Made by a program: the position numbers and the translations under genes
Shown: in pieces, positions 38,594-39,185 of the stretch
How the letters are laid out: each line of letters begins with the position of its first letter
Position numbering within the stretch: position 1 is the stretch's first letter
From: a virus
Taxonomy: Duplodnaviria; Heunggongvirae; Uroviricota; Caudoviricetes
Direction: 5' to 3' (one strand)
DNA length: 40,352 nucleotides
IMG/VR virus record: IMGVR_UViG_2923302340_000006
Span: 1-40,352 of that record
The notes under the pieces: generated by a model
What the model saw: the letters and a program-made list of their open reading frames with translations, nothing else
The model's database searches: none
What the model was told of the DNA's origin: nothing

Positions 38594-39185
38594 TAGTCAT
38601 TATCAATATCCTGCAGATGTGACCTAACGACAAGCGTCGCCACGATGACAACCACGGAAAGGATGCCGATAAAAAGATATCCCAAAACCCCAAAATCTCA
38701 TCTTTAGGATTTGCAGAAAGGGAGGCGTGAACAGATACCTGCGCATGAAGACGGAACTAGTCCAGATGTGATATTTGTGGTGATCACATACATCATCAAC
38801 GATGCTCGTTATGGTGAGTTTGATGACTACCCGCTGAAGTGAAAATTGTGTTGTGTACCAAATTGCGTACCAAACTAAAATCACAAATCATGAAACCCTT
38901 GTTCATGGCGGTTCTCAGGGGTGTTGCGCATAATCGTGAAACAAAAAGGTAGATTGTTGCTTACCGTCATTCATCATTAGGTTAAATCCGTTATTTCTGC
39001 TATCTGCCAGAGTATCAAATATCACCGTGCTAATCAGCTTTAGCGCGACAATTTGACAGCGAGTGGCAACAAATCATGTCAGATAAAAATGAGAGGGTAG
39101 TCACATTTTCTTGCACTTTATTCCAGCCAGTTCATAAGTATTTCCGTAAAAAGAACAGCTATTTGAAACTCCTGAGGGTTTGCTG

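Follow-up and report, generated by a model that had tools for sequence, protein, structure and literature searches.

The right end of a P22-like prophage next to dacD: a 2851-type attachment site in the 5′ end of sbcB

The DNA lying between the last phage gene and dacD in the stretch studied here is very probably an attR (P-O-B′) of the "2851 type", a lambda-style tyrosine-integrase module, and belongs to a P22-like prophage integrated in sbcB. The whole stretch of DNA that was analysed, 40,352 nucleotides in length and referred to here as the window, extends from the stop codon of the Xis gene to the stop codon of dacD. The gap between the stop codon of the tailspike gene and the start of dacD spans 592 bp (38594–39185), and its host part begins about 250 bp before dacD. 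There is nothing unusual about this junction, which corresponds to a textbook attR that belongs to a known integration module and is located at a known hot spot. The sbcB site is already well documented for phages 2851 and Sf101 and for many Shiga-toxin phages, and the 2851-type att site in sbcB has been described previously (PMC4159516).

Junction with the host chromosome and attachment core

An earlier note, made from the sequence alone, had let the phage genes end with the tailspike at 38593 and the host DNA begin with dacD at 39186, and had located the right attachment site in the interval between both. These assignments were borne out: ORF 36521–38593 encodes a protein with a Head_binding domain, a 388-aa ORF that coincides in extent with the dacD annotated by RefSeq in Z217-2 begins at 39186, and the attachment core is found at 38929–38941. 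The reading of the interval as a prophage–host junction is hence supported, but it was incomplete, as the 5′ end of sbcB at 38915–38977 (minus strand) had been overlooked. The features of the core and of the host side are the following:

38929–38941: 13-bp att core CATAATCGTGAAA (canonical CGTAATCGTGAAA), corresponding, on the minus strand, to sbcB F13-H14-D15-Y16 and the first base of E17
38977–38915, minus strand: orphaned host sbcB 5′ end, a 20-codon stub made up of the start and 16 native codons, 4 phage-derived codons and a stop
38978–39185: divergent sbcB–dacD intergenic region, 208 bp, containing both promoters and colinear with prophage-free E. coli
39186–40352, plus strand: dacD, host gene, intact, TTG start, 388 aa

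Positions 38400–39400 were compared by megablast with complete E. coli genomes, and matches were obtained in 5,415 out of 5,426. In prophage-free E. coli genomes the match runs only from position 38931 rightwards; the features located beneath it are "dacD | sbcB", sbcB being annotated by RefSeq beneath the matching stretch. The prophage-free strain Z217-2 is colinear with 38931–40352, with 98.5% identity and no gaps. Phage DNA does not, then, extend through dacD, and both this gene and its upstream region are unaffected by integration. A blastn search of phage genomes, with 38594–38960 as the query, showed that attP regions match 38668–38958, with identities of 96–98% for mEp234, EC.P3, E212, 1717 and 2851, and of 92% for Sf101. 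Host and phage alignments overlap at 38929–38941, and the prophage–host junction could thus be placed to the base; the alignment to a prophage-free dacD upstream region, which the earlier note had proposed as a check, resolved it fully. The alignments and searches reported here show directly where the junction lies, what each arm corresponds to and that no RNA gene is present.

A five-way alignment including the window, attB, two attP and one attR identified the core as the stretch common to attB, attP and attR. The window core agrees with the canonical CGTAATCGTGAAA at 12 of the 13 positions and lines up, without offset, with the cores annotated in mEp234 and 1717. Its pattern is present as a single copy within the 40-kb window; the second att copy is located off-window, as anticipated. 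The annotation given to this stretch is "prophage attachment site (type 2851)" in mEp234 and HK544, and "duplication due to insertion of stx2c phage" in 1717. The 13-bp core is the published attP of phages 2851 and Sf101 (PMC4159516).

The integration target is the protein-coding gene sbcB (exonuclease I), codons 13–17, and not a tRNA gene. Positions 38977–38915 read, on the minus strand, ATG ATG AAT GAC GGT AAG CAA CAA TCT ACC TTT TTG TTT CAC GAT TAT GCG CAA CAC CCC TGA, which translates as MMNDGKQQSTFLFHDY-AQHP*; native SbcB of Z217-2 starts MMNDGKQQSTFLFHDYETFG. The segment 38977–38942 (minus strand) encodes MMNDGKQQSTFL and the core adds FHDY, these residues being the same as residues 1–16 of native SbcB. 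We take the core to be the DxE "Exo I" motif of exonuclease I, which holds the catalytic residues Asp15 and Glu17 and represents a very conserved target. Integration very probably occurred by site-specific recombination between the attP core and the same 13 bp in sbcB (F13-H14-D15-Y16-(E17)). From 38942 rightwards the DNA is that of the host, comprising sbcB codons 1–12 with the start codon, the sbcB–dacD intergenic region and dacD.

Taking into account that P22-like phages such as P22, Sf6 and CUS-3 mostly integrate in tRNA genes, both as general knowledge and as reported (PMC4159516), a target in a tRNA or small RNA gene that had escaped recognition was considered. ARAGORN detected no tRNA or tmRNA gene in the whole window, cmscan detected no Rfam family at E ≤ 1 in 38300–39400, and the sequence at the core and rightwards is sbcB coding sequence. 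With both searches empty and the five-way alignment placing the core in sbcB, an RNA gene was ruled out as target, and we assign practically no probability to it. The earlier note had likewise recognised no tRNA in the gap, and had named the presence of a tRNA or small RNA gene there as evidence that would speak against its reading; neither was found. The lack of a tRNA is explained by the target, which is sbcB coding sequence.

The single position at which the window core departs from the canonical sequence is a G>A change at 38930 (core position 2). It is missing from all five close relatives aligned, the 2851-type relatives carrying G where the window carries A, and it is synonymous in the sbcB stub (TAC>TAT). 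The core variants found among relatives are synonymous spellings of F-H-D-Y, and they include CATAATCG..., with the TAT Tyr codon of the window. A, with this Tyr codon, is the usual core base in the diverged family members L048, L052, L055 and L056. When IMG/VR was scanned for attP or attR sequences with the A variant of the window in an E. coli-type context, no match was obtained.

Phage arm and integration module

To the left of the core lies a phage-derived arm with two short repeats, and the opposite end of the window holds the beginning of the integrase side of the module:

38668–38928: P arm of attR, phage-derived, matching the attP/attR of the phages listed above
38853–38862, plus strand: putative arm-type repeat 1, GTGTACCAAA, match to GYGTACCAAA
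38865–38874, plus strand: putative arm-type repeat 2, GCGTACCAAA, match to GYGTACCAAA
1–192, minus strand: AlpA-family excisionase (Xis), complete, 63 aa (PHROG "excisionase and transcriptional regulator", 7e-8; Pfam Phage_AlpA, weak)
1–20, plus strand: 2851-type integrase gene, last 20 nt only, the remainder being off-window

The P arm is missing from prophage-free genomes. Within it, both repeats are adjacent, with a 12-bp period, and they are located 55–76 bp from the core. The motif GYGTACCAAA has 2 matches in the 40-kb window, compared with 0.15 expected from shuffled sequence, a significant enrichment. In the attP of mEp234 it is present twice in the P arm and three times in the P′ arm, and the P′ arm of 1717 also contains three copies. 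We infer that the GYGTACCAAA repeats serve as arm-type sites for Int, laid out 2 + 3 as in lambda; they would be bound by the arm-binding domain at the N-terminus of this protein. The repeat of a relative with a 73%-identical integrase (L050 913–1194) is GTACAGAAT instead, with unchanged spacings of 250 and 23 bp, and judged by this relative integrase and arm sites look as if they co-vary. A strict consensus scan for the IHF site (WATCARNNNNTTR / WATCANNNNNTTR) gave no match on either strand of 38594–39000, a scan that weak sites may escape. Consensus scans of the gap and of attL for promoters and terminators yielded only chance-level matches.

The integrase end had been described in the earlier note as lying off-window. 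It does so by only about 1.4 kb, and the last 20 nt of the gene are still included. The 3′ end of int together with xis shows 1–4 differences per phage over 260 aligned bases when compared with Sf101, mEp234 and 1717. Given this near-identity, att type and int/xis type agree at the sequence level. The cognate integrase of the 2851-type site has 392 aa; its gene runs against xis, with transcription directed away from attP, and the integrases encoded at the corresponding position in related contigs combine Arm-DNA-bind_3 and Phage_integrase domains. An exact-protein look-up with ORF 274–645 led to related phage contigs in attP form, with identities of 95–98%. Excision of the prophage would need the off-window Int together with the Xis encoded at 1–192.

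The module therefore resembles that of lambda in having two tail-side and three int-side repeats, comparable to P1, P2 and P′1–P′3, a short identical core, and Xis beside int. In contrast to lambda, the 2851-type integrase is transcribed away from attP and opposite to xis, and at their N-terminus its relatives have an Arm-DNA-bind_3 (P4-like) domain. Further differences are the adjacency of the P-arm repeats, the failure to detect a strict IHF consensus, and a target that lies within a coding sequence. With the 2851-type phages the window shares the position of the core in sbcB, Xis, the integrase 3′ end and the two arm-type repeats. The P arms of phages 2851, 1717 and mEp234 are 96–98% identical to that of the window, and those of HK544 and HK140 are 92% identical over a shorter stretch. 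These five are lambdoid siphoviruses or Stx phages with other genes beside attP, whereas the window holds a P22-like podovirus.

Further features of the phage genome were observed outside the attachment region. Upstream of the tailspike gene there is an immI-like gene set (33919–36420) of the kind usual for P22-like phages. It comprises a 347-aa P63C-domain protein of PHROG 2384 (33919–34962, plus strand), two divergent Arc-family repressors, Arc/Mnt-like (34978–35217, minus strand, and 35291–35479, plus strand), and a Bro-N/P22_AR_C antirepressor (35542–36420, plus strand). A 164-aa ORF at 5238–5732 (plus strand; PHROG 1244) is located in a moron-like position, on the strand opposite to the early-left genes that surround it; no Pfam match was obtained for it.

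A mosaic right end between tailspike and core

The segment between the tailspike gene and the core has the following composition:

36521–38593, plus strand: P22-type tailspike gene, last phage gene (Pfam Head_binding, 3.9e-67)
38594–38667: 3′ flank of the tailspike module, 74 bp, the same sequence that follows the tailspike gene in PEC41 and W13-16
38668–38672: GATAA, a 5-bp microhomology with overlapping identities at the joint of the tailspike module and the 2851-type att module
38669–38842, plus strand: 3′ remnant of a umuD/humD-like S24-peptidase gene, 57 codons, a pseudogene within the P arm
38624–38884, minus strand: 86-codon ORF, probably no gene, antisense to the umuD-like pseudogene

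The 3′ part of the tailspike gene (37400–38593) and 79 bp downstream are 99.5% identical to the tailspikes of porcine O139:H1/ETEC prophages in about 20 E. coli genomes. No phage record of the INPHARED set contains this part of the tailspike. In one of these strains, W13-16 (O139:H1; L013), the prophage occupies another att site, bioA–ybhB, and the comparison of its tailspike with that of the window is a clean case of P22-like phages swapping their att modules. Identity to PEC41 in the tailspike flank reaches 38672, and identity to the att module extends back to 38668. PEC41 carries the same tailspike at the same chromosomal site, with 1,011 bp extra at the joint (L012 3774–4784) that comprise a tail-fibre fragment, a hypothetical ORF and a larger part of the humD remnant. 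On sequence, the window looks like a deletion derivative relative to PEC41. The exact joint between tailspike and att module is present in none of the 5,426 complete E. coli genomes, no record covering at least 80% of 38400–39400.

The umuD-like remnant lacks its N-terminus and contains an in-frame TAG at 38705–38707. It is matched in tblastn by the intact HK140_028 and HK639 UmuD and by the S24 peptidase annotated in MG40, with E values from 2e-18 to 5e-12. PHROG UmuD-like families match it at 7e-8 and 6e-6, through the C-terminal ends of their profiles only. The PEC41 counterpart is labelled by PGAP "HumD family ... internal stop; missing N-terminus". No complete UmuD/HumD ORF, with N-terminal cleavage region and catalytic domain, is present in the gap.

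ORF 38624–38884, opposite to this remnant, exists as the earlier note had stated, and is probably spurious, as it had also suggested. It might instead be a genuine small phage gene, a moron beside attP comparable to Sf101_0017. The frame is open in mEp234, Sf101, BR1220 and PEC41, and in 1717 except for the last codon; transcripts from the orphaned sbcB promoter would read it, and the Sf101 annotation has its counterpart as "hypothetical protein" only. It shows, however, no match to any Pfam or PHROG family and faces the umuD-like remnant on the opposite strand. In 1717, 6 out of 9 substitutions are non-synonymous, near the neutral expectation, a comparison of low power with so few changes. 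The ORF has a GTG start without an evident ribosome-binding site, and its 3′ end sits in the tailspike flank, past the GATAA joint, so that the C-terminus varies among mosaics. We consider a genuine gene very unlikely, and retain the reading of ORF 38624–38884 as a probable spurious frame.

Sf101, a serotype-converting Lederbergvirus of Shigella flexneri, is also a P22-like carrier of the sbcB-site module, and its attL junction has been confirmed by PCR and sequencing (PMC4159516). Its early-left region is, in pieces, 97% identical to that of the window. The two differ in what lies next to the attachment site. Sf101 has the O-acetyltransferase gene oacB between tailspike and attP and a longer umuD-like remnant; the window is devoid of both, its tailspike flank being fused straight to the umuD-like remnant at GATAA. 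The receptor-binding part of the tailspike is also a different allele, the one in the window being common to porcine E. coli prophages, and the P arms of both are only 92% identical.

Both changes found near the core could be taken as signs of decay, with the right end of the prophage locked or degenerating and attR inactive. The G>A at 38930 is unique among close relatives, 257 bp separate the core from the end of the 1,011-bp deletion that distinguishes the window from PEC41, and many sbcB-site prophages in E. coli, BR1220 and PEC41 for example, are remnants. The P22-like gene set of the window, on the other hand, is full-length from xis through to the tailspike, and both arm-type repeats and the other 12 core positions are intact. 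A at core position 2 is normal in L048, L052, L055 and L056, and is thus tolerated by related systems; the deleted sequence is also absent or variable in other functional 2851-type phages. An inactive attR appears unlikely to us, and an otherwise ordinary 2851-type attR is preferred. The change at 38930 could still be a post-integration mutation that makes the prophage less excisable. All that is new at this junction is the particular mosaic, that is, the porcine-type tailspike allele with the GATAA-mediated deletion, and the private synonymous change in the core.

Fate of sbcB in related lysogens

The attL of related lysogens (L006 560–760; L010/L011 1259–2683) was inspected next to the body of sbcB. 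In 1717 it reads, on the sbcB strand, ...GACA ATG ACA GAC ACA GAT AAG CAA CCT ACC TTC CTC TTT CAC GAT TAC GAA ACC TTT GGC..., and encodes MTDTDKQPTFLFHDY in frame with the sbcB body. Of the 5,426 complete E. coli genomes, 581 (about 11%) contain an attL of this kind, which includes the phage arm. The chimeric gene is annotated by PGAP as an intact "exodeoxyribonuclease I" of 474 aa that starts MTDTDKQPTFLFHDYETFG, the native protein being of 475 aa. In the T-F-L codons that precede the core, 3 nucleotides distinguish the phage arm from native sbcB, and each of these differences is synonymous.

We surveyed 79 IMG/VR loci around integrase relatives, 45 of which had usable sequence upstream of int. 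The core was found in 20 of the 45, with 0–3 mismatches, 225–227 bp before the int start, and with integrase identities ranging from 100% to 59%. A first motif scan detected an ORF running through (Q)PTFLFHDY in 18 of these 20 loci, L057 and L059 being the exceptions. The nucleotide sequence was then read for 13 of the core-bearing loci, L057 and L059 included. All 13 (integrase identity 100%–59%) show an in-frame stop and a start codon (ATG, TTG or GTG) at a constant position, followed by about 8 variable codons and by (Q)PTF(L/Y)(F/I)HDY. At attL loci this surrogate frame runs on into sbcB, and at attP loci it forms a short mini-ORF. We read the conserved arrangement as a phage-borne surrogate 5′ end that would be under selection to keep sbcB open.

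The mini-ORF of free-phage attP spans the core, is 19–20 codons long and reads MTDTDKQPTFLFHDYA(Q/K)(H/Y)P* (L002 2750–2830, minus strand; tails of L015/L016; L031/L032/L037/L053). Integration divides it, the head being joined to sbcB and the tail terminating the native sbcB stub.

The attL of the present prophage is off-window. Its P′ arm would provide sbcB with a new start codon and the N-terminus MTDTDKQPTFLFHDY..., as is seen in all related lysogens. We tentatively propose, as a reading that may well turn out otherwise, that the 2851-type module acts as a conserved "gene-sparing" system directed at the 5′ end of a host gene, and that every lysogen would produce a chimeric, phage-controlled ExoI. 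According to this proposal the int-proximal arm would have its own translation start after a purine-rich stretch and an in-frame stop, and the native promoter would be left driving the 20-codon stub at attR (38977–38915).

Integration might alternatively act as a knockout of sbcB, leaving a lysogen without exonuclease I and with an sbcB-null phenotype. The native sbcB promoter and start now drive only a 20-codon stub that lacks the catalytic Glu17, the terms used in the literature are "disruption" or "occupancy" of sbcB (PMC8309913), and a sigma-70 scan of the P′ arm flagged nothing promoter-like ahead of the chimeric start. The same sigma-70 consensus scan also misses the native sbcB promoter, and because of this it is uninformative on expression of the chimera. 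Three observations stand against a knockout: in lysogens sbcB regains a start in frame from the phage arm, with the intact 474-aa product called by PGAP; the T-F-L codons of this arm depart from native sbcB only at the three synonymous nucleotides; and even where the integrase is only 59% identical, relatives have a start codon (ATG, TTG or GTG) in position and the frame into (Q)PTF(L/Y)(F/I)HDY. A simple knockout is, in our opinion, rather improbable, and we favour the chimeric gene over it.

Phage 21 and e14 integrate in the 3′ end of icd and bring along a substitute for the end that they displace, and phages that target tRNA genes do likewise. The situation at sbcB is similar in that the phage arm contains a diverged copy of the separated part of the target gene, the ORF being thereby preserved. 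It differs from phage 21 and e14 in that a 5′ end is replaced, so that the phage must bring a start codon and signals for both transcription and translation. In the literature searched, sbcB is treated only as "occupied" or "disrupted" and the N-terminal replacement of SbcB is undescribed, the original description of phage 2851 being outside the scope of that search. The replacement is the only element that we regard as mildly novel; the junction itself adds nothing beyond the published phages 2851 and Sf101.

For annotation purposes, the right end of the prophage is neither the tailspike stop nor dacD, but the core at 38929–38941, which provides a base-exact boundary. The sbcB 5′ stub should not be annotated as a gene, ORF 38624–38884 is probably spurious, and 38669–38842 corresponds to a umuD-like pseudogene. 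In lysogens of this kind sbcB is to be considered a phage–host chimera rather than a simple knockout. Should expression of the chimera differ from that of native sbcB, one in nine complete E. coli genomes would have ExoI levels rewired by a phage, and expression of chimeric ExoI would then be relevant to recombination, recombineering and phage-defence phenotypes.
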